Shown: piece by piece, positions 5,608-52,214 of the stretch
Numbering within the stretch: position 1 is the stretch's first letter
Layout: each line of letters opens with the position of its first letter
NCBI GenBank assembly: GCA_037200965.1
Contig: JBBCGK010000001.1
Span: forward strand, 384,001-448,000
Length of the DNA: 64,000 nt
Direction of reading: 5' to 3'
From: a bacterium
GTDB lineage: Bacteria; Patescibacteriota; Minisyncoccia; Phycocordibacterales; Phycocordibacteraceae
The notes under the pieces: model-generated
Told to the model about the DNA's origin: nothing
The model's database searches: none
What the model saw: only the letters and a program-made list of their open reading frames with translations
Translations under genes and position numbers: made by a program

Positions 5608-5622
5608 ATTGCAAAAACTATA

Positions 5623-13920: not shown

Positions 13921-14335
13921 GTATTGGATCGGTAAGCTATTTCAGTGAACTTTTACATCTGGAAAGTATTGAGTATTTGGTAGCAGAAAACCGCCTTTCA
14001 GCGGTTTTCTGGGAAGGTGTGGCCGTAATGCGCTGTTTGGTCTTGCCTTAACTCAGTCATTCCTCTGACCTCAAGCTCTCATCGTAGGACAGCTTTTTCC
14101 AAGTCCCCTATTTCTTCTTACGCTTTGTGTCGCCAAGGGCGGCACCTGCGACTGACTTCTGGACTGTACGCTTTTGCGGCTTCTTCAGCAACTTCGATGC
14201 CATACTTGCCACACGTTTGCTCGTGTTTCCCATGATAGTGCTTGCCGAGGAGGATTAGTAGAAGTGACCACCTTCTATCCTCGGTCTCTACATTTTACTC
14301 TTGTAAGAATTTACAGCGAGGTGGATAACTGATTC

Positions 14336-14869
14336 CTACAGGAATGCGATGAAACCCAGTAAACCAAGTCCTACCGCGAGAAGGATGAAGGTTGGAACCA
14401 CACTGAAATTAATATAGCGTCTCTCAGATTTCCTTAGCTCGTCAACAGACTCAAACTGCTGTAGTTTCGGATTCAGAATATTTTTCCTTGAATATACATA
14501 CCTGCCCCGATTCCATGATAGACGTCTCCCATGTCTAAATGTAAAGATGATTGCAAAGAGCGATGCAAGAAACATTGCCAGAGTTAAAAGACCGAAAAAC
14601 AGAGTCCATATACCTTCAAAACCATCTGTATTGATTAGCTTATCCGTCACTTCAAAATAAAGGTAGGTTATGACATATACAATGAGTATGTCAGGCAGCT
14701 TCCTTAGTGAGATATATGCTATGTATCCGTACCCAAAGGGAGAGATGGTCCATCCTTTAATATATTTCAGATCATTATCTGAAAGCTGATTCTCATTTCT
14801 TACCTGCTTTCTTTCAAACCATGTAAAGCTTGACAGGTATTCGCGAGTCTCCTTAAATCCAAATTTCAT
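14336..14869 (-). CDS. hypothetical membrane protein in the AT-rich island (orphan immunity-protein candidate)
   Basis: 177 aa, 3-4 TM helices, low-GC codon usage unlike the host; lies between the two 27-bp repeats. Confidence 0.45.
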   Translation of the reverse strand: MKFGFKETREYLSSFTWFERKQVRNENQLSDNDLKYIKGWTISPFGYGYIAYISLRKLPDILIVYVITYLYFEVTDKLINTDGFEGIWTLFFGLLTLAMFLASLFAIIFTFRHGRRLSWNRGRYVYSRKNILNPKLQQFESVDELRKSERRYINFSVVPTFILLAVGLGLLGFIAFL

Positions 14870-14973
14870 AACCTGCTTAAATTCACTTCACTATAATAAA
14901 TCCTTGTCAGGATTAATTCCGCTAAGATTAATTTCCTCTAGGTCAATCTGAAAAGCTCTTGCTTGCTGTTGCA

Positions 14974-15309
14974 TTAGAGAAATAATCTCATATACAGCCA
15001 TCTGGTAGCCTCTGTCATAGTCTGTAGTCTCCGTATTGATTTTCTTATTGGAATTTCGCCAAGTTTGTATTCAATAATGTCGCCAGTACCTGGAAGTGCA
15101 AATTCCTCAAGTAAGAATCGAGGAATATAGTGATGATTCGATTGTTCGTAATCATTGATATAAACTCCTTTTTGTAGGATTCCATATATATAAAATACTA
15201 CTTTAGATAAAAGACGACTTCTTATCCTCCTATTTAGCATTACCATGATTAGCTTATTTGCTAATCTAAGTCTCGCGATGTTTATACGCTTTACTAGCAC
15301 CGATATCAT
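14974..15309 (-). CDS. hypothetical protein in the AT-rich island (possibly a truncated orphan module)
   Basis: 111 aa, AT-rich, no recognisable motif; the start is uncertain. Confidence 0.3.
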   Translation of the reverse strand: MISVLVKRINIARLRLANKLIMVMLNRRIRSRLLSKVVFYIYGILQKGVYINDYEQSNHHYIPRFLLEEFALPGTGDIIEYKLGEIPIRKSIRRLQTMTEATRWLYMRLFL

Positions 15310-15332
15310 TAAGTAGGGACTGTTAGGTCTTT

Positions 15333-15359
15333 CTAGACACTAAGTGCTGTATACAAGCC
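15333..15359. repeat. 27-bp direct repeat, copy B (stop codon plus 24 nt at the 3' end of the 15333-15542 gene)
   Basis: See copy A. A local tandem duplication tacaagcca/tacaagcc sits next to it. Confidence 0.6.
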
Positions 15360-15542
15360 ATACAAGCCAATAACTATAAAGAATAGAGCGGATAATCTGA
15401 TCATTACCAGCATCCACTTTGGTTCTTGATTATTTTTTATAGAATAGACACTGCGTGTAAAATTCCAAATTACACCAGGATTTACAATCGATAGGAGACC
15501 GGCGATAAGAAAAATAGAATTTAATATTATTTGAGAAGTCAT
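15333..15542 (-). CDS. small 2-TM membrane protein, putative cognate immunity protein of the RHS C-terminal toxin
   Basis: 69 aa with two hydrophobic helices. It starts 4 nt after the RHS stop codon, and the region is AT-rich like the toxin tip. Confidence 0.55.
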   Translation of the reverse strand: MTSQIILNSIFLIAGLLSIVNPGVIWNFTRSVYSIKNNQEPKWMLVMIRLSALFFIVIGLYGLYTALSV

Positions 15543-15546
15543 ATAG

Positions 15547-21500: not shown

Positions 21501-23451
21501 GGGCCGGATCGAGCGCCCATCCGGTACCCGTATTGAGGTAGACGGCGTTGCCCGACCATAAGGAATTCGCGCCGTTGAATTCGACCCATGAGTTATAGCC
21601 GATATCGACGAGGCCGTCGTTGTTGAAGTCGGCGAGACGGGTGCTCGTGCCGCCGCCGGGCGGGATTGGCACGGCCCACTCGGTGCTCGTGGCCCACCCC
21701 GACCCGGTGTTGAGATACACCATATCGGTCGGGCCGTACTGGGAATCGGAACCTCCGATAACGTCGTCGAGCCCGTCGTTGTTCACGTCGGCTATGCGCG
21801 CGCCGGTATCCGCCCGGAGCCGCGCGGAGAAAAGCACCGGTATCTGCCACGACGGCGCGTACGTCCAGCCGTGGCCGTTGTTGAGGTACACCTTCTTCGT
21901 ATACGTTACGCTCCCGCCGTTCGGATTGTTCACATACGAGCGGACGATATCGGCGGGGCCGTCGCCGTTCACGTCACTGAACCGGGTGCCGACGTCCTTA
22001 TTATTCTCCACAATCGTCTCCGGATTGGTCCATACGGTACTCGTCGCCCAGCCGCTGCCGGTATTGAGAAACACCGACGAATTACACACGAAATCCGGTA
22101 GCAGATCTCCGTTCACGTCCACTATGCGGGTCCCTTTGTCGCGTATCGATGAACTTCCGTATTCGGTGATGATGCAGGGAGCGTTCCAGAGCGTGTTTTC
22201 AGCCCATCCGGTACCGGTGCCAAGATAGGTATGCTTGGTTATCACGGGGCTGCTGTACTTGGATTCGACAAGGTCGGTGAGCGAATCGCCGTTCACATCG
22301 GCGAGCGTCACTCCGCGATCGCCCTGATCGTTCGTGAATTCGACCGGCACCGTCCAGCCGGGACTGGCCCACGCGGGACTCGATGTCGCATAGGAGAATG
22401 CGGCCGCGGGAAGCGAGATTACCGCCCCGCCGTCGTCCCGGCCCGATTCGGTAACGCCCGCGAGGAGGAGGCGCGAGCCGTTGTCGCCGTGCGTATAGGC
22501 GAAATCGTAGCTCCGAACCCACTCCCCGTTCACCTTCGTCCGTATCTGGTCGATCTTATACCGTGTCCGCACACCAAAGCCGCCGGGAGACGTCGTCGCG
22601 GTCGCGGTCGCCCGAAGGCTCTTCGCGAACTCGACCGAAAAGACTCCGGGCGCTCCGCCGCTCCCGGTATAGCGGATGGATTCGGGATAGATCTGCCCCG
22701 AATCTTTCGCGTAGCCGTACGTGACGGTATTTCCGTTCGCATCCATGGTTTCCTGGAGCATCCACTTGTACACTCTGCCCGAATCTCCCGGGTCATCCTG
22801 CCTGGCGGCGGTCGAGGTGCCGAACCTGTACACGACGCCGTTTTTATCCGTCACCATCCAGATGTTTCCGGCAAGCGCATAGCGCAGATAAGAACCGTCA
22901 TCGCTGCGGGCGAGAAAGACCGAGGAATCCGACGTGGTCGCAAGCTCTCCCGAAAGCGAGGAATAGAAATGCGGCGAGGTCGTGCTATAGAGATTTTGCA
23001 TCCCTTCGACGTTATACCGTTCTATGTACGGTATGGAGATATTCCAGCCGTATCCGAAAGCGCTCGCCTCGTCGCGGTCCTGACTCGAATAGGACAGGGA
23101 AAGATGCGGCTCCATACCGTTTCTTCCGGGCGGAACGGTGATCGCGTAGTCGTACGTAAAAGCACCTGTTGCGGCCGATTGATCGGCGCGGGTACGTTCC
23201 GGGCCGGAATCCCGCAGGTATGGCGGCAACTGATCATCGCCGTCCCCCAAACTGAGAGTCTGCGCTCCCCCGCCCTGAAGAAAGGCATCGCCCTCCGTAT
23301 CCGGCATAGCCGATGAAACATCCTCGGCCGGATCTTCCGACGCCGCCAAAACGGGAGCGCAGAAGAGCGGCGTGAAAGAAAGAATCAGCGATGCTGCCAC
23401 GAACTTGTTGAAGGATATTACCCAGGTCGCCCGTTTCGAGGGCTTTGCCAT
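15547..23451 (-). CDS. giant secreted RHS/YD-repeat polymorphic toxin: SpvB-like N-terminal domain, FG-GAP beta-propeller repeats, YD/RHS shell, RHS core, variable C-terminal toxin domain
   Basis: From N- to C-terminus the protein shows: a signal peptide (MAKPSKRATWVISFNKFVAASLILSFTPLFCAPVLAA); an SpvB/TcB motif (TGAFTYDYAITVPPGRNGMEPHLSLSYSS...GYGWNISIPY); at least 6 FG-GAP-like repeats (DVNGDxxxDxV); dozens of YD repeats (YEYDPYG, YAYDGRGLL, YNYDASGNL...); an RHS core end (ARYYDGGRGQFLSQDP...NSYSYVRNNPIINKDPSGNWY); and a ~150-aa Gly-rich tail. The start is chosen at ATG 23451, giving a good signal peptide; the ORF-track start at 23556 adds 35 aa. Confidence 0.85.
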   Translation of the reverse strand: MAKPSKRATWVISFNKFVAASLILSFTPLFCAPVLAASEDPAEDVSSAMPDTEGDAFLQGGGAQTLSLGDGDDQLPPYLRDSGPERTRADQSAATGAFTYDYAITVPPGRNGMEPHLSLSYSSQDRDEASAFGYGWNISIPYIERYNVEGMQNLYSTTSPHFYSSLSGELATTSDSSVFLARSDDGSYLRYALAGNIWMVTDKNGVVYRFGTSTAARQDDPGDSGRVYKWMLQETMDANGNTVTYGYAKDSGQIYPESIRYTGSGGAPGVFSVEFAKSLRATATATTSPGGFGVRTRYKIDQIRTKVNGEWVRSYDFAYTHGDNGSRLLLAGVTESGRDDGGAVISLPAAAFSYATSSPAWASPGWTVPVEFTNDQGDRGVTLADVNGDSLTDLVESKYSSPVITKHTYLGTGTGWAENTLWNAPCIITEYGSSSIRDKGTRIVDVNGDLLPDFVCNSSVFLNTGSGWATSTVWTNPETIVENNKDVGTRFSDVNGDGPADIVRSYVNNPNGGSVTYTKKVYLNNGHGWTYAPSWQIPVLFSARLRADTGARIADVNNDGLDDVIGGSDSQYGPTDMVYLNTGSGWATSTEWAVPIPPGGGTSTRLADFNNDGLVDIGYNSWVEFNGANSLWSGNAVYLNTGTGWALDPARTLPAPFIANGLDAGTRIGEADGNGPVDFITSGTIGGSYYHNYNFVYLGTGGMADLLTRVVEPAGGAITASYKSSASYRGAGGAMLNPGLPVNLETAEGISRYAGIGATSTDSYAYAGGRYYFGSPFDRRIAGFGTTTKTDAAGNVTKTFFHQGDASATSTGEYLDDQSKIGKAYRSESYDDAGHLYSLEVDKWETYNRGGKADFVRKTQMTVLDYDGDSDHADKAETYAYDDGAGNLTQKVEWGRVNAGADGSFADTGTDKFTTAYAYAASSTAPFSLLSRETRTDQASSTVRETKNYYDALSFGSLNRGNLTKQESWIAASTTIDTEKTYDARGLVLTEKDPRDKQTIYEYDPYGLYPATTTNALGQSTAYLYDYSSGKPRQTTNPNGRTYHTVYDPLDRVLEEWQPDTEEPSALVMKSAYAYTDTGMPRRAKRTDYLDDAVSADSYTYFDGFGRKVEELAEAEGSNRYAVRTFAYDGRGLLVSESQPYFASGTGFTGTSSPPALPLRTRYAYDPLKRVSSVENAVGETEYAYDDWKTTVTDALGRAKDLVKDAYGNLASVVEHVGGSSQTTAYEYDGNKNLTKITDAQGNIRDFAYDGLGRRLSATDLHAGADATYGIWSYNYDASGNLASSTDPKGQTTVFTYDDLNRPLAEDFAGSPSIEVAYTYDACTEGKGLLCTASTTETTAAFAYDPLGRMETETDTIGGVSAITRYGYDRLGNLATLGYPNGIQARYTYNSAGQLERIAQRQGEAGTFADVVSDFDYAPTGKVKYAALGNGTESSYTYAADQLYRLTNIRTVLPQAGDSLRTDGDGEDSEQAGAFGKLLGIRNGRLALASNSPYLLAFLGMGQEEAGEEASVEPIVPSDLDGHDAISPEEGAATTEEVPETESRAASTTQPLGESLVPEAAVGETASTTTDERAAPDGDSYASLKALPFDAPELRLRAPVDRHLGTREISDGIVRYAYRTDENVDDLPASEETRARAKAAGVAVKGEIKSQRTKHARVFATDKPNTFVAEIVSGDPQYYEDEKGGWWVADYGITTADSYEAQKRAQGGSPGILEAIVGFLFPKRARADTGTFYPDPDPETSSVDGYVYKDHSSNWNSVHNATNGINANSDAAEIIVSDELGVASGALDYGIRRGFLLFDTSSLPDSVPVIDATLSLYMTGVTAGGSEKRLYVASSSPSSAASLVSQDFDMIGSTSYGVSDGTYAGNTYEPIALNANGLASISRTGVTKLSVRTYNDFNNIAPTDATELVANFASADDTGTGHDPKLVVVYDTAPAGPTALLTEGQTDPVHVTDLTPEFSALFTDADAGDLALAYRIQLAASSAFSSVYWDTGMTALASSTPSGMRIPDISYAGPALASSTPYYWRIKLWDADTQSEWSSVASFEIPVSFPPGAPASLLTEGLTNPAGITDYFPEFSAVYADPDSGDSARYFQIQVATSTGAWSAPVWDSAKAPFASSTAPGTRTEDITYAGDALAAGIPYYWRMRVWDDHDVDSDWSAAASYVIGTPPSGTTIQDIYFTYDAVGNVTGIDDYSDTQAAKSAVFAYDDLDRLTVASTTAAASLPYRETYGYSAIGNLTGKSGQGSYAYAGTGYANPHAPTSVASTTLSYDNDGNVVAHGPDSFAWDYRNRLAASSDGSATTTYAYDHVGNRAAKVSGGIATLYPNKYFELQGATTTAYIWAGDGLVAAIEGNGSATTTSYMHPDHLGSTNVVSDDAGQLAKTLDYYPYGSERVDAGAVDLGRTFIGQFHDDESDLSYLNARYYDGGRGQFLSQDPSFLAMGDAKKVKELTQQELNQILMDPQTLNSYSYVRNNPIINKDPSGNWYVYINGGLTYGFFNVQIGFEASDQGVNAVAGGGPSLGAEAKIGGGFSSGSMPKNAEVQVEQSVGGAVGVGYKYSKSATVNVKDGTNATGPKQDVSSSHNLQIGVGAAVSQTYTVHVPIIPGSMIQTAPAPTTPATTKPTTTETKNKVKNNR

Positions 23452-23542
23452 TACGGGTATCGTAGCATCCATTATCGAGGGCTTGTGGATATCGGGAGAA
23501 TCGGAAACTTTCGTTTTTATTGACGATACGCAGCGCAACATA

Positions 23543-23557
23543 TATGATATTATCATA
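23543..23557. promoter_or_regulatory. 15-bp perfect palindrome TATGATA-T-TATCATA, putative operator of the RHH antitoxin operon
   Basis: Seen directly; lies 20-34 nt upstream of the antitoxin ATG and overlaps -10-like TACTAT/TATAAG hexamers. Confidence 0.45.
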
Positions 23558-40616: not shown

Positions 40617-41458
40617 GTATTAAGAACAAGTTGGCACAAGCGTGAGTGATTTCGTTAAGTAAATACGGGGCGAATTGAAGATTTCCGGCGAGGAAAATCT
40701 GAAGCAGAATTCCCTCACGTATTCCTCCAAGTTCTCGCTCCAGTGATGATGATACATCCTGCGCACGAAGGTGCGGTATACCCCGAACATTCCCTCGATC
40801 TCAGAGGTGTGCTCGAACTCGAATTTGGAGTGAATATCTCGCTGGTGCGACACCGGCCAGCGTTGGCTGATGTTCTTGTATATCGACCCGCCATCGGTCC
40901 AGAGCTCGCTTCCCGGCGCCACATGCTCGAACAGGAATGAGACGGCATCAGTCTTGGTTGGGTACCTGCCGTGGAATACCTCGAAGGCGAGCTTTCTCGT
41001 ACCTTTCTGCTTGGCCATGACGAGCGCGGCGTTTTTGAAGTACGCTTCGTCCATTTGGACGATACGTTCGAGCACATGGGTTTCCTGGGGCAAATGGAGC
41101 CTGAAGGTGGCATACCAACGCCTGACCGTGCGTTCCGGAAGGCCAGAGAGCGTGACGGCTTGGCGTACCGGCTCTTGTATGGTCCAGCACCAGAGCAGCA
41201 CCCACCACTGCTCGAGGGGGAGCTTCAGATTCGAGAGCCAGGTGTGCGAGGTGAGGGAGAAGCGGATGCGGCACGTGCGGCACCGATACCGCTCCTGTTG
41301 CTTTTCGATCCTTCGTGACCGGCACGAAGGACAGAACACGTTCTTGCCGAAGAGCGTACGGCGCAAGAACTTCCGAATCTGCGCTTCGCTCGGTATCTGT
41401 TTGAGAGTGTACATAGCTTCCATGGTATGGGAGCTGTGCCAACTGAGTCTGAATGCCC
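40617..41458 (-). mobile_element. IS1595-family-like insertion sequence (~840 bp) bounded by 10-bp direct repeats, with short AGTTGGCACA-core terminal inverted repeats
   Basis: Direct repeats as listed. Left end is AGTTGGCACA at 40629-40638; right end is the reverse complement of TGTGCCAACT at 41436-41445. Confidence 0.5.
40620..41423 (-). CDS. IS1595-family DDE transposase (N-terminal zinc-ribbon CPSC...CRTC)
   Basis: FCPSCRSRRIEKQQERYRCRTCRIRF, then IVQMDEAYF ... LWTDGGSIY. The start is chosen at ATG 41423 (MEAMYTLKQ); the track start at 41477 would cross the direct repeat. Confidence 0.7.
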   Translation of the reverse strand: MEAMYTLKQIPSEAQIRKFLRRTLFGKNVFCPSCRSRRIEKQQERYRCRTCRIRFSLTSHTWLSNLKLPLEQWWVLLWCWTIQEPVRQAVTLSGLPERTVRRWYATFRLHLPQETHVLERIVQMDEAYFKNAALVMAKQKGTRKLAFEVFHGRYPTKTDAVSFLFEHVAPGSELWTDGGSIYKNISQRWPVSHQRDIHSKFEFEHTSEIEGMFGVYRTFVRRMYHHHWSENLEEYVREFCFRFSSPEIFNSPRIYLTKSLTLVPTCS

Positions 41459-41468
41459 TGATCCGGGG
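41459..41468. repeat. 10-bp direct repeat TGATCCGGGG (right flank of the IS1595-like element)
   Basis: See 40607-40616. Confidence 0.5.
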
Positions 41469-41470
41469 AC

Positions 41471-41500
41471 TTGACAATACAATATACTAAGGTGTATAAT
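41471..41500 (+). promoter_or_regulatory. perfect-consensus sigma70-type promoter TTGACA-N18-TATAAT
   Basis: Both hexamers are perfect. The promoter sits 3 bp outside the IS1595 direct repeat and about 45 nt upstream of the small ORF 41548-41658. Confidence 0.55.
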
Positions 41501-41547
41501 TGATGCCGTACCCTGTACATCAATCATCACGCTAAGAGGAGAGTTAC

Positions 41548-41658
41548 ATGGATATGACCACCTTACCCTTCGTTGTCGCTTTGGCGACGTTCGGGCTGTA
41601 TTTCGCGGGCCTGTTTTTCGAGGCACGCGCGACAGCGATCCCGTACTTCCGCCCGTAG
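41548..41658 (+). CDS. 36-aa hydrophobic single-TM peptide (MDMTTLPFVVALATFGLYFAGLFFEARATAIPYFRP)
   Basis: A strong SD (AAGAGGAGAG, AGGAG 6 nt before the ATG), a perfect upstream promoter and a downstream hairpin terminator. Too short for the ORF track. Confidence 0.45.
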   Translation: MDMTTLPFVVALATFGLYFAGLFFEARATAIPYFRP

Positions 41659-41680
41659 ACCGAAAAACGGGCGTCTCATT

Positions 41681-41708
41681 GGCGCAGGCTCCGTAAGGAA
41701 CCTGCGCC
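41681..41708. terminator. hairpin GGCGCAGG-loop12-CCTGCGCC followed by CTTTTC, between convergent murC and the small ORF
   Basis: 8-bp GC stem seen directly; a second short hairpin (41651-41670) precedes it. Confidence 0.45.
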
Positions 41709-41745
41709 AACCTGCTTTTCAAGATGAATCAAAATCGGTAACGGT

Positions 41746-43029
41746 CTAGGTCTTAGGTGCGGCGAGCATGTCCGCAATTTTATAAATATCTCCTGCGCCC
41801 ATGGTCATAAGGGAGTCGCCGGAGCCATACGTTTCGAGCACCTTCTCGATAGCGTCAAACGAAGGAAGCGCTGCGGCGTCGGTGCCTTCCGCACGGATAC
41901 GTTCGGCGAGTATGTCACTTGAAATGGTGCCGTCGTCCGTCTCACGCGCCGCATAGATGGGAGCTATAAGGACCTTGTCCGCGTCCTTGAAGGCGGTTGC
42001 GAAATCGTCGAGGAGGTCGCGGGTGCGGCTGTAAAGATGCGGGTGGAAGGCGACAACGACCCTGCCGTTCGTCTTTTCCCGAAGCGCCTTCAAGGTCTCG
42101 CGCACTTCGGTCGGGTGATGCGCGTAGTCATCGTATACGTCGGCCCCGCTCTTGGTTTTTCCTTTGTATTCGAAACGCCGCCAGGTGCCGTGGAAATGAG
42201 AGAGCGAAGTGGCGATGGAACTTTCAGCGATAGACGGAAGAACGGCGCGGGCGGCCCCGGCGGCAGCGCGGGCATTCATTTGATTGAAGCCTCCCGGAAG
42301 CCGCAGCTCATAGGCAGGCTCGAGCGTATAGTCGATAACGGGCGCCACGGCGTCGGCGAGCACCGCCGCGATATTCGCGTCGTGGGGGTTCGTGACGATA
42401 CAGCCGTCCTCGGGCACGTTCCGTATCGCCGTACGAAACGTTTCCTGAAGAGCTGCAAGCGACGGGAAATGATCGGTATGGTCCCATTCGAGGTTGGTGA
42501 CCACGAGCACCGAGGGGGAGAGCTCGAGCAGGTGATCCTTATATTCGCACGCCTCGACGACGAAAAGATCCGAATTACCGGAAAGATAGTTGGAGCCGAA
42601 ATCCTTGACGATAGAGCCGACGATGGCGGTCGGAGAAGCCCCGGCGTCGGCGAGAATCTTCGCAAGCATGCCGGTCGTGGTCGTCTTCCCGTGCGTTCCG
42701 GCGACCGCGATCGTCTTCTTTCCCCGCGACACTTCCCCGAGCATGGCGAAGTACGAGAGTTCGGGTATGCCAAGCTCCCGGGCGCGCATTCGTTCCGGAT
42801 TTTCCGGAGGCACCGCGTCGCTATAGATGAGCCTGTTCGTGAGAGCCTCTACGTTCTCCGCCTTTTGACCTATCACGACCCTGATCCCCTTCTTCTCCAA
42901 TAGCTCCGTCACCGGACCCGCCTCCCTGTCCGATCCGGTTATTTCATTTCCCTGCTCCTTGAGCATTTGCGCGAGCGCGCTCATCCCGATGCCGCCGATG
43001 CCGGTGAAATGGAGTTTTTGAGGGTTCAT
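41746..43029 (-). CDS. murC: UDP-N-acetylmuramate--L-alanine ligase MurC
   Basis: 427 aa: HFTGIGGIGMSALA...IAVAGTHGKTTTTGML...VVEACEYKDH (Mur ligase motifs). Confidence 0.9.
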   Translation of the reverse strand: MNPQKLHFTGIGGIGMSALAQMLKEQGNEITGSDREAGPVTELLEKKGIRVVIGQKAENVEALTNRLIYSDAVPPENPERMRARELGIPELSYFAMLGEVSRGKKTIAVAGTHGKTTTTGMLAKILADAGASPTAIVGSIVKDFGSNYLSGNSDLFVVEACEYKDHLLELSPSVLVVTNLEWDHTDHFPSLAALQETFRTAIRNVPEDGCIVTNPHDANIAAVLADAVAPVIDYTLEPAYELRLPGGFNQMNARAAAGAARAVLPSIAESSIATSLSHFHGTWRRFEYKGKTKSGADVYDDYAHHPTEVRETLKALREKTNGRVVVAFHPHLYSRTRDLLDDFATAFKDADKVLIAPIYAARETDDGTISSDILAERIRAEGTDAAALPSFDAIEKVLETYGSGDSLMTMGAGDIYKIADMLAAPKT

Positions 43030-44099
43030 GCGCCTGTGCCAAGCACGATATCAGAAATATCCCGGCGAAGCTCGTTGATGGCATCCGGGCTCGAGCGCTT
43101 GGGATACGTCCTGTTGGAGAGAACGGCAAACGCTGTTTCCCGTTCCGGATCGACGACGCAGAGCGTTCCCGTGAACCCTGTTTTCCCGAATGTGCTCGGA
43201 CGCACGTGATTTCCCATGAACCTCGGCTCGTTGAGTTCCCATCCAAGGCCCATCGATACGCCAGGCAGGCTGAGCTGGTTGGTATGCATCTGCGCGACCG
43301 TCGCGGGCTCGAAGTATTTGATGCCGCTCAGCGAGCCTTCGTTCAGAAGCATCTCGAGGAAGATGAGGATGTCCGGTACGTTCGTAAAGAGGCCGGCGCA
43401 ACCCATGGGATGCTCTTTCTCCAGAACGAAGCTGGTCTCGTCGTGTACGAATCCCTGCACGAGCCCCCGCCATTCGTCTATCTCCGTCGGCGGAATGCTC
43501 TTCTGGTCGCGAGGAAAAAAGGTTGAGTTCGTCATGCCAAGCGGCTTGAAGAAGTATCCGTGTCCGACTTTATCGACCGTCGAACCTGTTATGTTTTCTA
43601 TGACCAGGCTAAGGAGGAGCGCCGGAAGATTCGAATATTTCGCCTGTTCGCCCGGCCGGGCCTTGAGATTCACGTGCGGAAGATTCTTTCCTATTTCTTG
43701 CGCAGTCGCCTTCGTGACGTCGAATCCGGGCGTCGGAAAATCTGGGATAATCGCGTATGTGAGCAGGTGCCGGATGAGCGTCTCGTGTGTGTAGTTATTT
43801 TTGTAAGTCGGCAGATGAGTGACAAGCTTGTCGTCGAGGGAAAGCTTCCCTTCTTCGATCAGTTTGAGCGCGATGGAGCTCGTCGGGATCGATTTGGTGA
43901 TGGAGGCGACATCATACGATGTATCCGCCATGACCCGGGGACTTTCCGGTTCGTAGGTGAAGCGGCCTTCCGCGAAAATCTCGCGCTTCCCGTCGCGCCC
44001 TACGATGCCGACGACGGCACCCGGGAAGACTCTTTCTTCGATAGCGCGTATAAGCCTGTTTCGGAGTGCTGATTCCATAGACGCTATCAACTCTAGCAT
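43026..44099 (-). CDS. beta-lactamase-family serine hydrolase / PBP-like (SxxK: SITK)
   Basis: 357 aa with the active-site SITKS and YSN-like motifs. ATGA overlap with murC. Confidence 0.7.
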   Translation of the reverse strand: MLELIASMESALRNRLIRAIEERVFPGAVVGIVGRDGKREIFAEGRFTYEPESPRVMADTSYDVASITKSIPTSSIALKLIEEGKLSLDDKLVTHLPTYKNNYTHETLIRHLLTYAIIPDFPTPGFDVTKATAQEIGKNLPHVNLKARPGEQAKYSNLPALLLSLVIENITGSTVDKVGHGYFFKPLGMTNSTFFPRDQKSIPPTEIDEWRGLVQGFVHDETSFVLEKEHPMGCAGLFTNVPDILIFLEMLLNEGSLSGIKYFEPATVAQMHTNQLSLPGVSMGLGWELNEPRFMGNHVRPSTFGKTGFTGTLCVVDPERETAFAVLSNRTYPKRSSPDAINELRRDISDIVLGTGA

Positions 44100-44146
44100 T
44101 TTCGATGCATGGGTGCCTTTTCTCTGCCTCTGCTACACTGGCCCGT

Positions 44147-45067
44147 ATGGCCCGAATCTATGACAAGGCGTATTTCGGTTCAAAGGTGGTGCCCATTGAT
44201 GACGCAGCGCTCAACATCACTACCTCAGCTGTACTCTACGGGCTCAGCGTCTATACGGTATTCCCGGTATGCGTGACGCAAGACGGACTCGCAGCGTTTC
44301 GCCTGTCCGACCATTTCAAGCGCCTTATCGAGTCGGCGCGCATAGTTGGAATCGACACATTCGAACAGGAATGGACGTATGAGAAGTTCTTGGTGGCCGT
44401 GAAGGAGACTACGGCCGCAAACAGCATCCGCCAAGACGCATTCGTGCGCGCGAGTGTACATGTGAGTGAGCGCGTGCCGGGCACGCGCTCGAGAGGACTG
44501 GCGACGACCTTGAGCATGTTCGTCTATGAAGCACTCCCGATCATCCCGCAGGACGGGACGCGCCTCAAGACGAGCGTCTGGAGGCGCGTCCCCGACTATG
44601 CGATTCCTTCCCGCGCGAAGGTAAACGGGGCGTATGTGAACTCGGTGCTTGGAAAGCAGGACGCGCTCGACAGCGGGTACGACGACTGCATCTTCCTAGA
44701 CGCCGAAGGCCATGTCTGCGAATTGTCCGCGGCAAACATCTTCATCGTCCGCGACGGCATGCTTGTTACACCGCCGACCTCAGGCGATATTCTTGAGGGA
44801 ATAAACCGGCGCACCATACTCGAGCTTGCGAAGAACATGGAAATCCCCGCGGTTGAACGCACGATCGACCTTACCGAACTCTATGTGGCGGAGGAGGCAT
44901 TCGCCTGCGGTACCTCTTCCTTCATCGCTCCTATCGCCGAGATCGACAAGCGTCGTATCGGTTCGGGTGCGATAGGCCCGATTACGACACGGATACGGCA
45001 ACAACACACGGCCGCGCTTCACGGGAGCGATCCGGCTTACCACAAATGGCTTACGATTTTAAGCTAG
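44147..45067 (+). CDS. class IV (fold-type IV) aminotransferase: branched-chain amino acid or D-amino-acid aminotransferase
   Basis: About 306 aa with motifs FLDAEGHVCELSAANIFIV and GITR-like regions. The start is chosen at ATG 44147, 7 nt after TACACT. Its stop overlaps the murD stop on the opposite strand at the CTAG. Confidence 0.7.
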   Translation: MARIYDKAYFGSKVVPIDDAALNITTSAVLYGLSVYTVFPVCVTQDGLAAFRLSDHFKRLIESARIVGIDTFEQEWTYEKFLVAVKETTAANSIRQDAFVRASVHVSERVPGTRSRGLATTLSMFVYEALPIIPQDGTRLKTSVWRRVPDYAIPSRAKVNGAYVNSVLGKQDALDSGYDDCIFLDAEGHVCELSAANIFIVRDGMLVTPPTSGDILEGINRRTILELAKNMEIPAVERTIDLTELYVAEEAFACGTSSFIAPIAEIDKRRIGSGAIGPITTRIRQQHTAALHGSDPAYHKWLTILS

Positions 45068-46272
45068 TTTTCTGCAAGAGTTGAAATCCATTTCCTGTAC
45101 TGCGCACTCTTGTCCTTATAGTCCTTGAAGAGGTTGAAGCTCGGTGAGGCATTCGAAAGAAGAACGATCCCGCCAGGGCGCGTATGCGTATACGCGGCAC
45201 GCACCGCTTCTTCCATAGAAGATACGGGGATGATATTCCGCTCGCTCACTTCGGCCACCATCTTGGCACCCGTATCGGGAAATATGATAAAGGTTTGTAT
45301 CTTGGTCTTCCCCAATTCTTGAGCAAAAGCATCAAATGAAATGCCGCGATCTTCTCCGCCGAGGATGATGGTATCGACACCGGAAAGAGCGTGTACGGAA
45401 GCCATCGAGGCTTCCGGAATGGTGGCGAGAGAGTCGTCGTAAAATGTGATGCCGCGATACGTTCCGAGTCTCTCCAGTCGGTACGGGAGCGGAATAAATG
45501 TCTTGATATGTTCGCGGGCTTCGGCTTCCGAGATACCCAACGCCTGCACCGCCGCGACCGCAAGCGCACAATCCTTTTGATTATGCTCGCCGAGGAGTTT
45601 TGTCTCGAAGCTTTTGCTCATATCCGGCCGCACTACCTTTCCTGCAAACTGAATAGCAAGATCACTGCCGTTTATGAAAACATCTTCCGAACCTTGGAAA
45701 CGCGCGATATTGAGCTTCGCCTCCTTGTACTTTTCAAAAGAACCGTGATGGGATAAATGTTCCTGATAGAGATTCGTAAGGACGGCAACGTGTGGGGAGT
45801 GCGTCAGGTATTCGCACTGATAACTCGACAGCTCAAGGACATGAAGCTGACCCGGAATATCCGCGCTCAGGATATCTGCGTCGGCAATACCAATATTGCC
45901 CGAGAGCCGGACGGTACGGCCCGCTCCTTTGAGTATGTGGTAAATCAGCGAAGAGACGGTACTCTTTCCTTTCGTACCCGTGACCCCGATGGCCCGGTCG
46001 CGCACGCGTTCAAGCACCAAGTCGGTAAACGTGGTGACGCGCGTTTTCGAAGAAGCAAGCCGGAGCTTTCTCGTCGGTATGCCGGGAGTCTTGTAGACAA
46101 TCTCGATAATGTCCGGTATCGAGAGCCCGAGATGCACGGTCGCATCCAATCCCCCAGGGTCTATAGCCGCTTCGTCGAAAATATGGAGTTCGGCCTTTCC
46201 TTTGAAATATTCATAAGCGGCATGGCCTTCCAGACCGAAACCGGCAATCCCGATGATAGGCTGTGCGCTCAT
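45064..46272 (-). CDS. murD: UDP-N-acetylmuramoylalanine--glutamate ligase MurD (possibly the L-Glu-adding MurD2 type)
   Basis: 402 aa: IGIAGFGLEGHAAYEYF...IGVTGTKGKSTVSSL... (Mur ligase). Confidence 0.85.
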   Translation of the reverse strand: MSAQPIIGIAGFGLEGHAAYEYFKGKAELHIFDEAAIDPGGLDATVHLGLSIPDIIEIVYKTPGIPTRKLRLASSKTRVTTFTDLVLERVRDRAIGVTGTKGKSTVSSLIYHILKGAGRTVRLSGNIGIADADILSADIPGQLHVLELSSYQCEYLTHSPHVAVLTNLYQEHLSHHGSFEKYKEAKLNIARFQGSEDVFINGSDLAIQFAGKVVRPDMSKSFETKLLGEHNQKDCALAVAAVQALGISEAEAREHIKTFIPLPYRLERLGTYRGITFYDDSLATIPEASMASVHALSGVDTIILGGEDRGISFDAFAQELGKTKIQTFIIFPDTGAKMVAEVSERNIIPVSSMEEAVRAAYTHTRPGGIVLLSNASPSFNLFKDYKDKSAQYRKWISTLAEN

Positions 46273-47588
46273 GGCTGGTGATAGTCGGCGGGAATGCCGT
46301 GCTCCCCGGTCGTCTCAGAAAGCATGGGCAAATACGCACCTCCTTCCATAATCGGCAGAGCTGCCAACACCGCCGGGAGCGGCAATCCTGCGTCGCTATA
46401 CTGCTTCGCGGAAAGATAAAGCGCGAGAAGATTTTCCTTGAACGTACCCACACAATCAAATGGCTTCCCCTCGTGCATACCGATCAATTCCTCAAAGAGC
46501 GGAATGAGAGCCGCATCCTCAAAGAGATTCTTCCTGAAGATATTGAAAACGGTGTTTGGCGCAAGAAATGCGGATAACGCTCCGAACATGAAAGCGCATT
46601 TCGCGCATTCGCCACACCACGACCCGGTCTTAAGGCCCCGATTGCAAGAAACGAAATACGGAAAATATTGCGGATATTCGATGAATCTGCGGACCACCTG
46701 CAGCTCGTAGAGCGGCCGGATAAGGGAAAAGAGGCGGATGCCTGGATTCACATACTTCCGGACATACTCTGCCGCCATCTTCTCGAACTCATAGCTTTTC
46801 GAATACTGATGGTTAATATTCTGACCCAGATACTCGACATTACCTTCGCTCGCGCTCCGTTCAAGCGAGGGAATTATATCGGTGAAGCCGTTCGCCTGCG
46901 CGGCAAGCACGGCGCTCATCATGTATGTGGCGGTGATAGGCACGTGTCCGTTCGGCGCTCCCCGCTTCACAAGCTCCATGACGGGAGCGAAATTCTTCGC
47001 CACATCGCGCCTGACGCTCACACAATCGGTGACTCCGGACACTTCGCGCAGGCGCGGGCCAAAAGGGAGCGGTTCGAGCTCGAACCATGAAAATGCTTTC
47101 TCTTGCTTTTTTAGCAGTTCGCCAGTCACCAAGCTGTCCTTCCCTCCTCCGAAAGGCACCAGCGCGCGGCGCGGGCCATTCGGGATACTTTGAACCGGCA
47201 AAATATCGGGTGCCTGAGGGTCTCCAACCACGTGTACCAGCCCTCGAAAGTCGATCTTGTTGACATAAAAGAATTCCCCAAGACCCTGAGTATATAAATT
47301 CTCCCAAAATGCGATTTGTTCCGGCAAAAGCCGCCCCGCTTTTATAACAATTTCCGGAGCAAGGATTGCTTTCCAAAAGCCCGCAAGTTCCGCGAGACCG
47401 AGTGCAAACGCAGCTGGTCTTAATGTTTCGGGGTTTGTGCCGTCTGGGAATGTATACCCAAGTTCGTGGACGAAGCGGTGCCCGGCATCGGTCGTATAGG
47501 TATAGGCAACCTTCCCCCGTTCGATATCTATCGCAAACGCATCGAAATAGAATCTGTGCGCGAGCGGCGAAGGTTTCATCGCGTCCAT
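46269..47588 (-). CDS. PP-loop (SGGKDS-type) ATP-pyrophosphatase-superfamily protein with a C-terminal CxxC...CGxCxKC zinc motif; candidate MurL-like glycopeptidyl-glutamate epimerase
   Basis: 439 aa: RALVPFGGGKDSLVTG (PP-loop) and SCNRGLKTGSWCGECAKCAFMFGAL. ATGA-coupled to murD. Confidence 0.4.
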   Translation of the reverse strand: MDAMKPSPLAHRFYFDAFAIDIERGKVAYTYTTDAGHRFVHELGYTFPDGTNPETLRPAAFALGLAELAGFWKAILAPEIVIKAGRLLPEQIAFWENLYTQGLGEFFYVNKIDFRGLVHVVGDPQAPDILPVQSIPNGPRRALVPFGGGKDSLVTGELLKKQEKAFSWFELEPLPFGPRLREVSGVTDCVSVRRDVAKNFAPVMELVKRGAPNGHVPITATYMMSAVLAAQANGFTDIIPSLERSASEGNVEYLGQNINHQYSKSYEFEKMAAEYVRKYVNPGIRLFSLIRPLYELQVVRRFIEYPQYFPYFVSCNRGLKTGSWCGECAKCAFMFGALSAFLAPNTVFNIFRKNLFEDAALIPLFEELIGMHEGKPFDCVGTFKENLLALYLSAKQYSDAGLPLPAVLAALPIMEGGAYLPMLSETTGEHGIPADYHQP

Positions 47589-47633
47589 GCCCCTATTCTA
47601 CCCGCAGAACCGCACTCACGCACGAAACGGAAC

Positions 47634-48182
47634 CTACTCGCACTCCCTGGTCGAAGTCGCGTCCTGGTGCGTCACCGGAAGCGGGCTTCTCGGCATGACG
47701 ATGATGCTATACGGGGTCGAGAGGGACTGCGTCACCATGCAGCCCTTGCCCGGGACGGTGAGGGTGACATAGACGGTACGCTCGGTCGCGCTGTCCTCGA
47801 CTTTCGTGACCGCGATGGCGTATCCCCCGGTTGGCTTTTGCCCGGCGAACACCCCAACGACCTCCTGCGAGGAAAGGTCGACCGCGGGCGTCGTCGAACT
47901 GGTACCGAACGCGAGTTTCCAGAGTTTCGCAATCCCCTCGGCATCGGTCGCGAGATAGTTCTTGCGGGTCGTAACGCCTCCGGCATGGGTGCCGGTGGTG
48001 AGTGTCGTGAAGTCCACGGGGCCTCCTATCTCCATCGCTTCGGTCGAGTTCGGCGTCGTAGTAGCCACCTGCTCGACGGCGGGCACGCCCATCATAAGCT
48101 CGTCAGGAGTGTAAAAATAAAGATAGGCACCGATGATGCCGGACGCGATGATCATCCCGACGATGATAAGAAGGTCTTTCAT
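47634..48182 (-). CDS. membrane-anchored PrcB_C-like domain protein (protease-complex subunit PrcB family), tentative
   Basis: An N-terminal TM (MKDLLIIVGMIIASGIIGAYLYFY) and a C-terminal motif GVFAGQKPTGGYAIAVTKV...GKGCMVTQSLSTPYSIIV. The start is chosen at ATG 48182, 6 nt after TATACT; the track start at 48242 overlaps the tRNA. Confidence 0.4.
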   Translation of the reverse strand: MKDLLIIVGMIIASGIIGAYLYFYTPDELMMGVPAVEQVATTTPNSTEAMEIGGPVDFTTLTTGTHAGGVTTRKNYLATDAEGIAKLWKLAFGTSSTTPAVDLSSQEVVGVFAGQKPTGGYAIAVTKVEDSATERTVYVTLTVPGKGCMVTQSLSTPYSIIVMPRSPLPVTHQDATSTRECE

Positions 48183-48237
48183 AGGTCTAGTATACCTTCT
48201 GTGCGGGCCCCGGGGGCGTTCTCCACAGGGAATTTTG

Positions 48238-48310
48238 TGCACGCTCTAGGATTCGAACCTAGGACCGCTCGAGTATCAGTCGAGTGCTCTACCAACTGAG
48301 CTAAGCGTGC
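48238..48310 (-). tRNA. tRNA-Ile (anticodon GAT)
   Basis: The reverse complement folds as a cloverleaf: acceptor GCACGCT/AGCGTGC, D-arm GCTCAGTTGGTAGAGC, anticodon stem CTCGA/TCGAG with loop CTGATAC, and T-arm CTAGGTTCGAATCCTAG. Discriminator A; CCA not encoded. Confidence 0.85.
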
Positions 48311-48565
48311 AGTTTCGTGATAGTACCAAAATCCGCCTGTTATTTCCACTTTCCCCACCCCCTCCCTTTCCCCCGAACCTTGCCTGTTATAGTGAGCCTA
48401 TAGATGGTCCACCGTGGCAACACGCGCGAACCGAAATTCCTCCGGTCGAGGAGGACTTCTACTCCCGAGTCGAAACTGCGCCGGCATCGCAACAAGGAGC
48501 GCATCTGGCAAAGATGCGTAAAGCGCCTCAAGGTCGCGGAAGTGCCTGCGGCTGCATAGGCCAAA

Positions 48566-48599
48566 AAGAAAGACCCGGATCACCCGGGTTCTTTCTTTA
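48566..48599. other. strong 14-15-bp hairpin (AAAGAAAGACCCGG-atcac-CCGGGTTCTTTCTTT) in the 16S-tRNA-Ile spacer
   Basis: Seen directly. Could be an rRNA processing stem or an attenuator. Confidence 0.4.
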
Positions 48600-48933
48600 T
48601 TCAGTGCATCGAAAACCTGTAGTCGCGTTCTCTTTTGTTCCGCCTATCCTGCTCCCGCTCAAAGGCTCACGTGTGGCCTTCAAGCGACCGCCGGGTTACG
48701 TTATCCGGCTTCCGTAGCGCGTTTGGGGACGACGCTAATCTCCCACTGTCCTTGCAGACAATATCGACATGATATGCCTTTCGGGCGATATCGGTTCCAA
48801 TTGGATATGTTCCACGAGCAGCTTCCGCTACCCGTGCCTTGTTTCGACTTACTCCCTGTCATTGAGTTTGCCGTAGTCCTGCATACGCAGAATTTCGGGC
48901 ACCCCCAACTCCCTTGAGTTGACGGGCGAATGT

Positions 48934-49824
48934 GATACTTAGGCAAGTTCACGTTCCCACGCAGCGAGCGGATTTCCCGCACTGCGCGAGCCCCCGGCGT
49001 GCATTTTCGATTTCAACACAGCGATCTTCCTAACCCCTTCTTTCGTGTGATGGGCTTTCGCAATCGCGAGCTCGAGGACTTGGTAAAATAGCTCAAAGTC
49101 CTTTACGCGCTTGCTTTCAAGCGGGTGCCTTTTGAAAAAAGGCACCACGACTTGCTTCAAGAGATCGTAGCTGAAGATCTCGAACCGATAATTATCCCGT
49201 TGATTCTTCCGATATTCGCGTTGGAAGTATATCTTTCCGCATCCCCAGAATTTCTGTACTTTCTCAAGAAGAGGAAGTTCGTCTTCCCGCATCTTGATGT
49301 AGTAACGGCACTGCACCCGGTAACTTACCGAGCCATGCTCTTTCTTAGGTGGAAGCAGATAGACACAGAAACTCCCTTCGCCATCGGTCAAACCGACGAT
49401 GTAATCAGCGGATAGCACGCCTGGTTTTGTCCTTCTCGCGTTCTTCTTGTGGAAGAGCGCAATACTACGACGCAGCTGACTCCCAGTGTCTTTTGATTCC
49501 TGCATACCGACATAGTATCAATGAGTTGACACTACGGGTATTCAAGAACCGTTGCCGTTGTGGACAACTGGGTCTCCCCGGGTTACGCATACTTCTATTC
49601 CATACATCCTCTACGGGCCTTTCTTCGGCACCTTCCCTATCCTCACCGCCCACTGATAGGTCGATGCGGCCCTTTTTGTGTACAGGCTGTGTTTTGCTTC
49701 CAGATCCTTCAGTCCATACCTTACGGCATTGGACCTATCTTTCGGCTACGCTCCCCACGACGAGTGAGGAGGAGTGGATTTGAACCACTTAGAACTATGC
49801 GCTGCCGGGCGCATTTATTTGTGA
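48934..49824 (-). mobile_element. intervening sequence (group-I-intron-like, ~890 bp) inserted near E. coli 16S position ~1396 (CTTGTAC|ACATTCGCCCGTCA)
   Basis: Conserved 16S sequence stops after TTGTAC at 49825 and resumes at 48933. The insert encodes a LAGLIDADG ORF. Confidence 0.7.
48939..49505 (-). CDS. LAGLIDADG homing endonuclease (single-motif type)
   Basis: 188 aa with the motif YIVGLTDGEGSF; the ORF ends at the insert boundary. Confidence 0.8.
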   Translation of the reverse strand: MQESKDTGSQLRRSIALFHKKNARRTKPGVLSADYIVGLTDGEGSFCVYLLPPKKEHGSVSYRVQCRYYIKMREDELPLLEKVQKFWGCGKIYFQREYRKNQRDNYRFEIFSYDLLKQVVVPFFKRHPLESKRVKDFELFYQVLELAIAKAHHTKEGVRKIAVLKSKMHAGGSRSAGNPLAAWERELA

Positions 49825-50395
49825 GTACAAGACTCGAGAACGTATTCACCGTAGTATGGCTGACCTACGATTACTAGTGATTCCGGCTTCATGAGGTCGG
49901 TTGCAGACCTCAATCCGTACTGGGGGCGGTTTTCGGGATTAGCTCCACCTTGCGGTCTTGCATCCTTCTGTACCGCCCATTGTAACACGTGTGCAGCCCA
50001 GGGTATCAAGGGACATGCTGATCTGGCGTCATCCCCACCTTCCTCTCCCGTGAGGGAGCAGTCTCGCCTGACATATATAACAGGCAACGGGGGTTGCGTT
50101 CGTTACCCCACTGAAGGGAACAGTTCAAACCACGAACTGACGACGACCATGCATCACCTGTCCAGCACCCTCGAAGGCTCCGTCCCTTTCGGGTCGGATG
50201 CAGCTGGATTTCTAACCCTGGTAAGGTTCTTCGCTTGCCGACGAATTAAGCCACATGTTCCACCACTTGTGCGAGTCCCCGTCTATTCCTTTGAGTTTTA
50301 AGCTTGCGCTCGTACTACCCAGGCGGCTCGCTTATCGCGTTAGCTTAGCCCCACAGAGGGTCGATACTCCGTAGAGCGAGCGAGCAACGTTTAGG

Positions 50396-50427
<32 letters not shown>

Positions 50428-50689
50428 ATCCCCTGGCTTTCGTGTGTGAGCGTCAGGAACGTACCAGTCTATTGCCTTCGCCTTTGGTGTTCCCCATGAT
50501 ATCAACGGATTTCACCCCTACACCATGAGTTCCATAGACCTCTTACGCCCTCGAGCCGTACCGTTTCCCGTGCGGACCGGAAGTTGAGCTCCCGGATTTT
50601 ACGCGAGACTAATACGGCCGCCTTGACACCCTTTACGCCCAGTGATTCCGGATAATGCTCGGGGCCTCTGTATTACCGCTCCTGCTGGC

Positions 50690-51624
50690 CATCGTGTGTG
50701 GCATGCCGCACGGGCATGCCGCTCATATCGCTATGAGGATCGGACTATATCATCACCCACCAATACTGATGGGGCTCGGCGTGTAGTCTCTGAGGGGTCA
50801 AAGTATATATTCCGATGATCAGAAGGAAGCTTGTACCTGAAACAGGGCAGGATGTAAGGGGCGACGGTTCTTGTAAACGCGTCGCGTCCTTCTTTCCCGA
50901 TATACAGTTTCGGATACCGCTTCCCGCGGCACAGCGACAAATAGGTTTTTGCCGCGATGCCGAATCTCTCTAATAACAGCGCTTGCAGTCGCTTCACCTC
51001 CGATTCCGTGAAAGAATCAGTACTGATGTGGTACGCATAATGGGATTTTGCTCGATAATCGAGCCTCCCATCATCCATGAACCACACCGCGAGCGTGAGC
51101 GGCGACCGGAACAATTCGGTGATATTTCCAGGAACGACCTTCTCGCGTCCCGCGTAGAAGATTTTGCGCATGTCTTCGAGGTTCTCGAAGAAACGCGTTC
51201 CGAAATACCACTGTTTCGTATCCGGTCTTTGCTTCGGAGGAGTTTTGACGAGATGCGCGAAGTGACTATAAAGCCACACTACATACTCCTTTCGTTCCTC
51301 CGATTGCTTTACCTGCAATCGGGTGCCTCGATAGCCGTTAAACTCGAGATTTCCATCTCCGAGCATGAGGCCTACGAGCACATCCCGTTGTTGCTTCGAG
51401 AGCGCACAGATCATCTTCACAATTATACTCGACTTCCCTGCTGATTGTCTCTTGGGATCTGATTTTGATTTCAAAGAAATCTAAACCAGACGCAGTCCAC
51501 AAGAGAGTTCCAGCATATAGCCAAGTTTTCGATCTCGATTTCTCGAGAAAGCTGCACGCGGTAACGAACGGTTCGTGAGAACCGTTCGATTTGCTCCAAT
51601 GCGCAGAGCCACCTGCGCACGTGT
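50690..51624 (-). mobile_element. intervening sequence (~935 bp) inserted in the 16S 515-region (AACTCTGT|GCCAGCAGGAGCGGTAATAC)
   Basis: The exon sequence ends at 51625 and resumes at 50689. The flanking universal-primer site reads GCCAGCAGGAGCGGTAATAC rather than GCCAGCAGCCGCGGTAATAC. Confidence 0.7.
50731..51474 (-). CDS. LAGLIDADG homing endonuclease (double-motif type)
   Basis: 247 aa with VGLMLGDGNL and VWFMDDGRL motifs. Confidence 0.8.
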   Translation of the reverse strand: MKSKSDPKRQSAGKSSIIVKMICALSKQQRDVLVGLMLGDGNLEFNGYRGTRLQVKQSEERKEYVVWLYSHFAHLVKTPPKQRPDTKQWYFGTRFFENLEDMRKIFYAGREKVVPGNITELFRSPLTLAVWFMDDGRLDYRAKSHYAYHISTDSFTESEVKRLQALLLERFGIAAKTYLSLCRGKRYPKLYIGKEGRDAFTRTVAPYILPCFRYKLPSDHRNIYFDPSETTRRAPSVLVGDDIVRSS

Positions 51625-52214
51625 ACAGAGTTAGGAGCCCCTTATTCCCCGGGTACCGTCAATTACTTCGTCCCCGGGAAAAGCTGTTTACGTACCTAAG
51701 CACTTCGTCCAGCACGCGGCGTCGCTCCGTCAGGCTTGCGCCCATTGCGGAATATTCTCGTCTGCGGCCTCCCGTAGGAGTATGGGCCGTATCTCAGTCC
51801 CATCGGTGGGGGTCAGCCTCTCAGCTCCCCTAAACGTCGTAGCCTTGGTGAGCCATTACCTCACCAACTAGCTGATATTACGCAGGTGACTCCCGGAGCA
51901 ATAAATCTTTACTCTCGCGAGACCATCGGGAATTACCCAACCTTTCGGCTGGCTATGCCCGACTCCGGGGGATCTCCCTGCGCGTTACTACCTCGTTCGC
52001 CACTGCCCTTGCGGGCCGTTCGACTTGCATGACTTATCCACGCCGCCAGCATTCATCCTGAGCTAGGATCAAACTCTCATTAAGAATAGGCGGAACAAAA
52101 CAAAACATAACTTACAGGTTTTCTTGCACCCCCAAGACCGTGCCGGTCCTGGGGACTTTATTCGTATGTCAGAGAGCAAATAAAACCGGCCCCCTGTGGG
52201 GCAGGTAAAGCCAT

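Follow-up and report, generated by a model that had tools for sequence, protein, structure and literature searches.

A predicted MurL/MurD2 gene pair for peptidoglycan D-glutamate in a Patescibacteria-type genome

Two overlapping genes on the minus strand of the DNA analysed here, from an ultra-small bacterium of Patescibacteria type (the window, a stretch of 64 kb that makes up ~7% of a 960,259-bp contig, JBBCBH010010897.1, of GCA_037975565.1), very probably encode a MurL/MurD2 pair working as published, i.e., as described for MurL (XOO_1319) and MurD2 (XOO_1320) of Xanthomonas oryzae, for which orthologues from Micromonospora and Salinispora have also been tested (Feng et al. 2017; reviews: PMC8788868, PMC5808125). 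The first gene is an open reading frame (ORF) of 439 aa, confirmed at 46269..47588 (−), whose product is identical to a protein of this metagenome-assembled genome (MAG) annotated as “hypothetical protein WDN10_02485”. The second, at 45064..46272 (−), encodes a ligase of 402 aa scoring 250 bits with the murD model TIGR01087 (cutoff 212), and recognized below as MurD2-type by its signature residues and its clade. The original prediction had described an ATGA overlap between the two, and the sequence bears this out: the murL stop and the murD start share the 4 nt ATGA at 46269..46272 (−), within CCATGAGC. As the Pfam and KEGG/JGI names already recognise the MurL family, what we describe adds a member to a known kind and is no new system. 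Its practical outcome is that a “hypothetical protein” gains a name and that a “D-glutamate ligase” call is corrected to a probable L-glutamate ligase.

The 439-aa protein matches the family model NF041275 (MurL_Xanthmoales) with E = 2.6e-73 and 247 bits, its residues 11–394 covering positions 8–394 of the 447 of the model; the precomputed Pfam annotation places MurL_N and MurL_epimerase_C (PF26299 and PF26298) on it, while an older local Pfam-A copy gives no match for this protein. It is 33% identical over 391 residues (E = 3e-55) to MurL of Xanthomonas sacchari, a reference that we took from a record with an annotated murL–murD pair in the plasmid collection. These matches uphold the proposal, made in the original prediction, that this gene encodes a MurL analogue. 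Indeed, comparisons by hidden Markov models (HMM) and BLAST with MurL and MurD2 were favourable throughout, and a clear match to QueC or TilS, which would have spoken for another function, was not found: none of the Pfam and NCBIfam models of these two families reached E < 0.01 on the protein, and a sequence search of the PDB returned no solved MurL, its sole match being a TilS PP-loop with a weak score (E = 0.061).

The PP-loop of SGGKDS type from which the original prediction started is present in the confirmed ORF. PFGGGKDS, at residues 145–152, is the sole [SG]GGxDS match across the six frames of the window, and its FGGGKDS part (residues 146–152; 47133..47153, −) is the predicted ATP-phosphate-binding site. 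Across an alignment of 99 MurLs that drew on genomes, metagenomes and Xanthomonas, GGGKDS is near-invariant, with G148, G149, D151 and S152 conserved at 100% and K150 at 98%. The cysteine motif had been described as a CxxC followed by CGECAKC; the latter part stands, the separate upstream CxxC does not, and the true form is C(x)9CxxCxxC, written out as S-C315-NRGLKTGSW-C325-GE-C328-AK-C331 (46596..46649, −), a QueC-type motif predicted to bind zinc, in which C315, C325, C328 and C331 are all 100% conserved. A third motif, KPF(D/E)CVGT (46443..46466, −), holds Cys379 (100%) together with P376 (99%) and K375 (97%), and E385 just downstream of it is 100% conserved, as are H215, H260, Q261, K264, E269, R291 and E295. 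Because the PP-loop and cysteine motifs are essentially invariant across the family, they are not chance matches.

The AlphaFold2 model of the 439-aa protein (pLDDT 96.5) contains a QueC-like PP-loop/zinc core, and its structural matches include nitrile synthetase, N-type ATP pyrophosphatase, TtuA, NcsA, ThiI, LarE, argininosuccinate synthetase and NAD synthetase. In sequence, the remote similarity to QueC (hhalign, residues 140–342 on residues 2–214 of E. coli QueC, E = 1.9e-5, probability 78%) and to TilS (E = 0.061) is confined to the PP-loop core, where FGGGKDS aligns with FSGGQDS of QueC and FSGGVDS of TilS, and SCN..WCGECAKC with TCY..GCGHCAAC of QueC. The hallmarks of QueC are SGGxDS and a zinc-binding C(x)8CxxCxxC (PMC13329287). 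To judge from the alignments, the motifs shared with QueC reflect a common fold and ancestry, not membership in the QueC family. The model depicts MurL as a QueC-like PP-loop/zinc core (residues ~140–342) flanked by a family-specific N-terminal domain, MurL_N (~1–135), and by a C-terminal helical region (~343–439).

Such an architecture can be set beside what is known of the reaction. MurL needs ATP and Mg2+, uses one ATP, yields AMP and works in the L-to-D direction only, and it has been described as an enzyme that “lacks known conserved domains” (PMC8788868, PMC5808125). The PP-loop core fits this published biochemistry, since a core of this kind is what an enzyme would need to adenylate the Glu alpha-carboxylate with formation of AMP. 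We propose, from the residues and the clade of the ligase, that the product of MurC, UDP-MurNAc-L-Ala, would be extended by the MurD2-type enzyme (45064–46272), at the expense of ATP, with L-Glu instead of D-Glu. From homology, fold and published MurL biochemistry, MurL would then bind ATP at its PP-loop and adenylate the alpha-carboxylate of the terminal L-Glu, with release of pyrophosphate and later of AMP; the proton of the activated C-alpha would be taken off and given back from the opposite face. Candidate acid/base residues are the invariant Cys379 with His215, His260 or Lys264, and the Cys4 motif, like its QueC counterpart, would bind a zinc of structural function. Stoichiometry between both activities may be kept by the ATGA overlap here and by gene fusions elsewhere. 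The QueC-like core of MurL thereby turns a proposed adenylation mechanism into testable residues.

The case for the ligase as a MurD2 starts from a handful of residues. Near the Glu site, four positions set X. oryzae MurD2 apart from E. coli MurD, namely E197/D182, R358/K348, P433/A414 and F435/L416; the double substitution E197D/R358K turns X. oryzae MurD2 into a D-Glu ligase, and K319T makes E. coli MurD accept L-Glu (PMC8788868). Reading the five positions in the order D182, K319, K348, A414 and L416 of E. coli MurD (D, K, K, A, L), the window ligase has E171, L282, R309, P377 and F379 and X. sacchari MurD2 has E, I, R, P and F; the MurD of Thermotoga maritima (4buc) and that of 7sir both have D, K, K, A and F, and the MurD of Streptococcus agalactiae (3lk7) has T, K, R, A and W. 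All four residues reported as specific to the L-Glu-adding MurD2 (E171, R309, P377 and F379) are, thus, present in the window ligase. Of 71 MurDs adjacent or fused to MurL, all 71 have Arg for K348 and Ile or Leu for K319, and 63 have Glu for D182. We considered the K319 position as a diagnostic and rejected it, as canonical Patescibacteria MurDs carry T, N, S, A or C there.

A neighbour-joining tree of 153 MurDs, built after removal of the five signature columns, gathers the 94 Arg-type MurDs, those of the window and of X. sacchari included, in a single clade with a bootstrap of 100/100. An independent sample of 80 metagenomic MurD loci, picked by similarity to canonical Patescibacteria MurD, gave a concordant picture: murL lies immediately upstream of an Arg-type MurD in 17 cases (one of them fused) and is absent in 1, whereas none of the 41 Lys-type MurDs with at least 1.4 kb of upstream sequence has an upstream murL (Fisher p = 6.5e-14 versus Arg-type). 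By every sequence criterion available, the window ligase is a MurD2, as the original prediction had suggested for the neighbour of its MurL candidate. A simple rule for recognizing murD2 follows from these comparisons: its product has Arg where E. coli MurD has K348 and groups in one well-supported clade, and murL lies upstream of it.

The linkage of the two genes extends well beyond the window. A scan of the GTDB species representatives yielded 195 MurL-encoding stretches, of which we examined the best 80; each of the 73 loci whose downstream sequence was long enough has a murD after murL in the same orientation, the contigs of the remaining 7 ending less than 1.2 kb from murL. The two genes are fused in one ORF of 698–896 aa in 14 loci, overlap by 4 nt, as here, in 16 and otherwise in 23, are separated by a gap of at most 50 nt in 13 and of 51–400 nt in 5, and lie about 1.2–2 kb apart in the last 2. 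In the fusion at locus L013, the MurL model scores 352 bits and the murD model 258 bits. Fused proteins of about 800–960 aa were recorded at L013, L017, L019, L024, L031, L033, L038, L041, L057, L058, L059, L062, L070 and L075, and also at P0265 and P0349; MurL is N-terminal in most of them, and the MurL match is C-terminal in P0265 and P0349. With MurD N-terminal and MurL C-terminal in P0265, fusions thus exist in both orders.

Two further observations concern relatives of these genes. In a Bacteroidales MAG (L061:7217-9481), the murD2 ORF carries ~300 extra C-terminal residues that look, by eye, like a cell-wall hydrolase/LysM-type region; this extension could be a genuine fusion or stem from simple ORF calling. 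MurL-like proteins with 28–30% identity are encoded on the Pseudonocardia alni plasmid pPaSha1 (L167:4001-5401) and on two other Pseudonocardia plasmids; the PP-loop, the five conserved cysteines and the majority of the invariant residues are retained in them, and their genes have no murD neighbour, WD40, ParA-like and helix-turn-helix genes standing beside them. These plasmid proteins may be a MurL paralogue with another substrate.

Several points weigh against reading the pair as a MurL and a MurD2 that work as published. The MurL score of 247 bits is far under the 700-bit equivalog cutoff of NF041275, which is presumably why the NCBI label is “hypothetical”. Identity of the window ligase to X. 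sacchari MurD2 amounts to 28% (E = 7e-34), and to E. coli MurD to 26% (E = 5e-33); because overall identity barely discriminates, it is the signature residues, the clade and the linkage that carry the MurD2 assignment. Both the zinc site and the part that Cys379 would play in catalysis are proposed on the basis of conservation. One also has to keep in mind that 64 kb of a ~960-kb contig were seen, the rest of which may contain a canonical murD, a murI or a gene for a D-amino-acid transaminase. Some JGI homologue records bear yet another name, under which the 439-aa protein would be a PP-loop enzyme of QueC/TilS type that modifies nucleosides or tRNA, its gene adjoining murD by coincidence. We give this next to no credence: the absence of any QueC or TilS model at E < 0.01 against E = 2.6e-73 for MurL, the restriction of QueC similarity to residues 140–342 of a protein that has extra MurL_N and C-terminal regions, and a murD neighbour in 73/73 judgeable loci, 14 of them fused, effectively refute it. 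A MurL homologue acting on another C-terminal residue or precursor (e.g., another UDP-MurNAc-peptide), next to a ligase adding an amino acid other than L-Glu, would be in keeping with the identity of just ~30% to the characterised enzymes and with the murD-less Pseudonocardia proteins, from which the family may be thought to have other substrates. Such a shift is very improbable given that every family-invariant residue is kept, Xanthomonas included, that the ligase retains the four MurD2 residues around the Glu site, and that the window pair falls within the clade of Xanthomonas MurD2.

What deserves more thought is whether a genuine MurL/MurD2 pair might be an auxiliary or salvage route in a cell that obtains free D-Glu through murI, a D-amino-acid transaminase or its host and has a canonical MurD elsewhere. 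A precedent comes from a Patescibacteria genome with a MurL of 60–61% identity (L004; JAIELV010000001.1, an 831-kb contig), where a canonical murD (4599-5939; TIGR01087 321 bits, Asp and Lys at the switch positions) stands directly upstream of murL–murD2. Since this cluster holds both, some genomes carry both ligase types, and the MurL/MurD2 route may be additional, not exclusive. With L004 canonical MurD as a query, none of the best 120 matches (at least 54% identity) is on the 960,259-bp contig, which is weak evidence against a second ligase there; likewise, the MurI motifs DSGxGG, ACNT and GCTH are absent from the six frames of the window, i.e., of ~7% of the contig. A class IV aminotransferase gene (44105..45067, +; PF01063, E = 2.6e-40), which runs towards murD2 and shares 4 nt with its 3′ end, has also to be weighed; a homologue of 74% identity follows murD2 in another locus (L002). 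Its product scores 249 and 224 bits with branched-chain aminotransferase (BCAT) models, just under their cutoffs, and 115 and 92 bits with D-amino-acid transaminase models; in the PDB, its nearest matches are BCATs (5ce8, E = 4e-54), D-amino-acid transaminases following at about 1e-15 to 1e-20. Because it stays under the BCAT cutoffs and has YTVFP in place of the FEGIR motif of E. coli IlvE, a D-amino-acid role is still conceivable; being much closer to BCATs, it was not adopted as a D-amino-acid transaminase, and as a BCAT it could possibly make L-Glu, the substrate of MurD2. Published MurD2/MurL genomes are without other D-Glu routes (PMC8788868). Altogether, we regard an auxiliary role as a minority possibility to be taken seriously, and retain the MurL/MurD2 pair as a probable source of D-Glu for the precursor.

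The hosts of the 80 loci are diverse: Patescibacteria are represented by Kaiserbacteria, Levybacteria, Peribacteria, Moranbacteria, Roizmanbacteria and others, next to gut Oscillospiraceae and other Clostridia, Bacteroidales, Binatia and Rokubacteria. An exhaustive profile search for MurL collected 1782 clusters (50% identity) at E ≤ 1e-30 and 4083 at E ≤ 1e-3. A 2021 review places MurD2/MurL in “relatively few bacterial genera”, namely Xanthomonadales, a few Alphaproteobacteria and Micromonosporaceae (PMC8788868), and a 2018 review also mentions low-similarity MurL homologues in cyanobacteria, a fungus and an amoeba (PMC5808125); our literature search found no open-access paper naming MurL together with Patescibacteria. 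The murL–murD2 pair is, then, far more widespread than the searchable literature says.

A broader reading would make MurD2/MurL a major, perhaps the main, D-Glu route in large parts of Patescibacteria, and present it also in gut Oscillospiraceae, Bacteroidales, Binatia and others, often as a fusion, with MurL as a QueC-derived zinc PP-loop adenylating enzyme that uses Cys379 for stereoinversion; for this joint statement, we consider the chances evenly balanced. If true, it would give a first mechanistic frame for MurL as an “ATP-dependent epimerase”. For a reduced genome, MurL/MurD2 would explain how a peptidoglycan containing D-Glu can be built without a pool of free D-Glu. A wide distribution that includes gut commensals would weaken the premise of earlier proposals to use the pathway as a target of narrow-spectrum antibiotics.

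The original prediction placed the pair in a block of murC, a penicillin-binding protein (PBP)-like gene and murD. Those genes are there, and the class IV aminotransferase gene on the opposite strand, between the PBP-like gene and murD, had been overlooked. murC (UDP-MurNAc:L-Ala ligase; 41746..43029, −), whose product supplies the substrate of MurD2, scores 408.8 bits with TIGR01082 (cutoff 335) and overlaps by 4 nt the PBP-like gene upstream of it; the latter (43026..44099, −) encodes a beta-lactamase-fold serine hydrolase resembling PBP4B/AmpH (PF00144, E = 2.5e-45), matches nothing by blastp (E ≤ 1e-8) in the 80 related genome loci and is, thus, not kept beside murL. Directly upstream of murL, after a gap of 45 nt, lies a gene for a PrcB_C-domain protein (47634..48242, −; PF14343, E = 3.7e-18), and a relative (L001) shows the identical order PrcB–MurL–MurD. 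A promoter and terminator scan of 41500–48500 stayed at chance level (3 versus 3.3 expected and 7 versus 7.4 expected, respectively) and has no bearing on operon structure.

Further features of the window complete this description. An IS1595-family transposase gene (40620-41477, −; DDE_Tnp_IS1595 in the precomputed Pfam annotation) lies directly downstream of murC and borders the mur cluster. murB (UDP-N-acetylmuramate dehydrogenase; 2384-3424, −; TIGR00179, 160 bits, above the cutoff) is 40 kb away from the murL/murD2/murC block, so the peptidoglycan genes are scattered and do not form one dcw cluster. On the other side, the 16S rRNA gene region (48237-52084, −) is split into Rfam matches at 51562-52084 and 49773-50828, with two ORFs for LAGLIDADG homing endonucleases (50731-51474 and 48939-49505) interrupting the gene; insertions in the 16S rRNA gene are typical of the candidate phyla radiation (CPR)/Patescibacteria. 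A tRNA-Ile(GAT) (48237-48310) comes after the 16S rRNA gene, directly upstream of the prcB-like gene, murL and murD2. Finally, the GC content, ~0.6 elsewhere, falls sharply to 0.405 at 14001-16000, beside an ORF of 2669 aa (15547-23556, −); this segment of low GC at 14–16 kb may have been horizontally acquired.

Comparison with known systems places both proteins more precisely. With regard to QueC (7-cyano-7-deazaguanine synthase, PF06508) and the QueC-like Cap9/QatC, the window MurL is without a significant QueC HMM match and is larger by an N-terminal domain and by a helical C-terminal region in which a Cys is invariant; its reaction ends in the epimerisation of a peptide residue, not in the formation of an amide or nitrile. 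MurL goes unmentioned in a 2026 survey of the QueC family (PMC13329287). The ligase resembles the canonical MurDs of E. coli, T. maritima and S. agalactiae in being a three-domain Mur ligase with an ATP-binding GTKGKST loop and K186 at the place of E. coli K198; unlike those enzymes, which are served by the MurI glutamate racemase, it has Glu and Arg for the Asp/Lys switch and Leu for K319, belongs to a separate clade (100/100) and is linked to murL, not to mraY/ftsW. The Xanthomonas pair is the closest known counterpart to be drawn on here, although identity to it is only 33% for MurL and 28% for MurD2, the window ligase has 402 aa against 478, the host, a Patescibacteria-type MAG, is not among the taxa of the 2021 review, and the cluster of the window also has murC, a PBP-like hydrolase gene and a class IV aminotransferase gene. 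Shared with it are the order of murL and then an overlapping murD, the two-domain MurL family, the E/R/P/F residues of the ligase and a single MurD clade; and, like X. sacchari MurL, the window MurL holds every residue that is invariant across the 99 MurLs.

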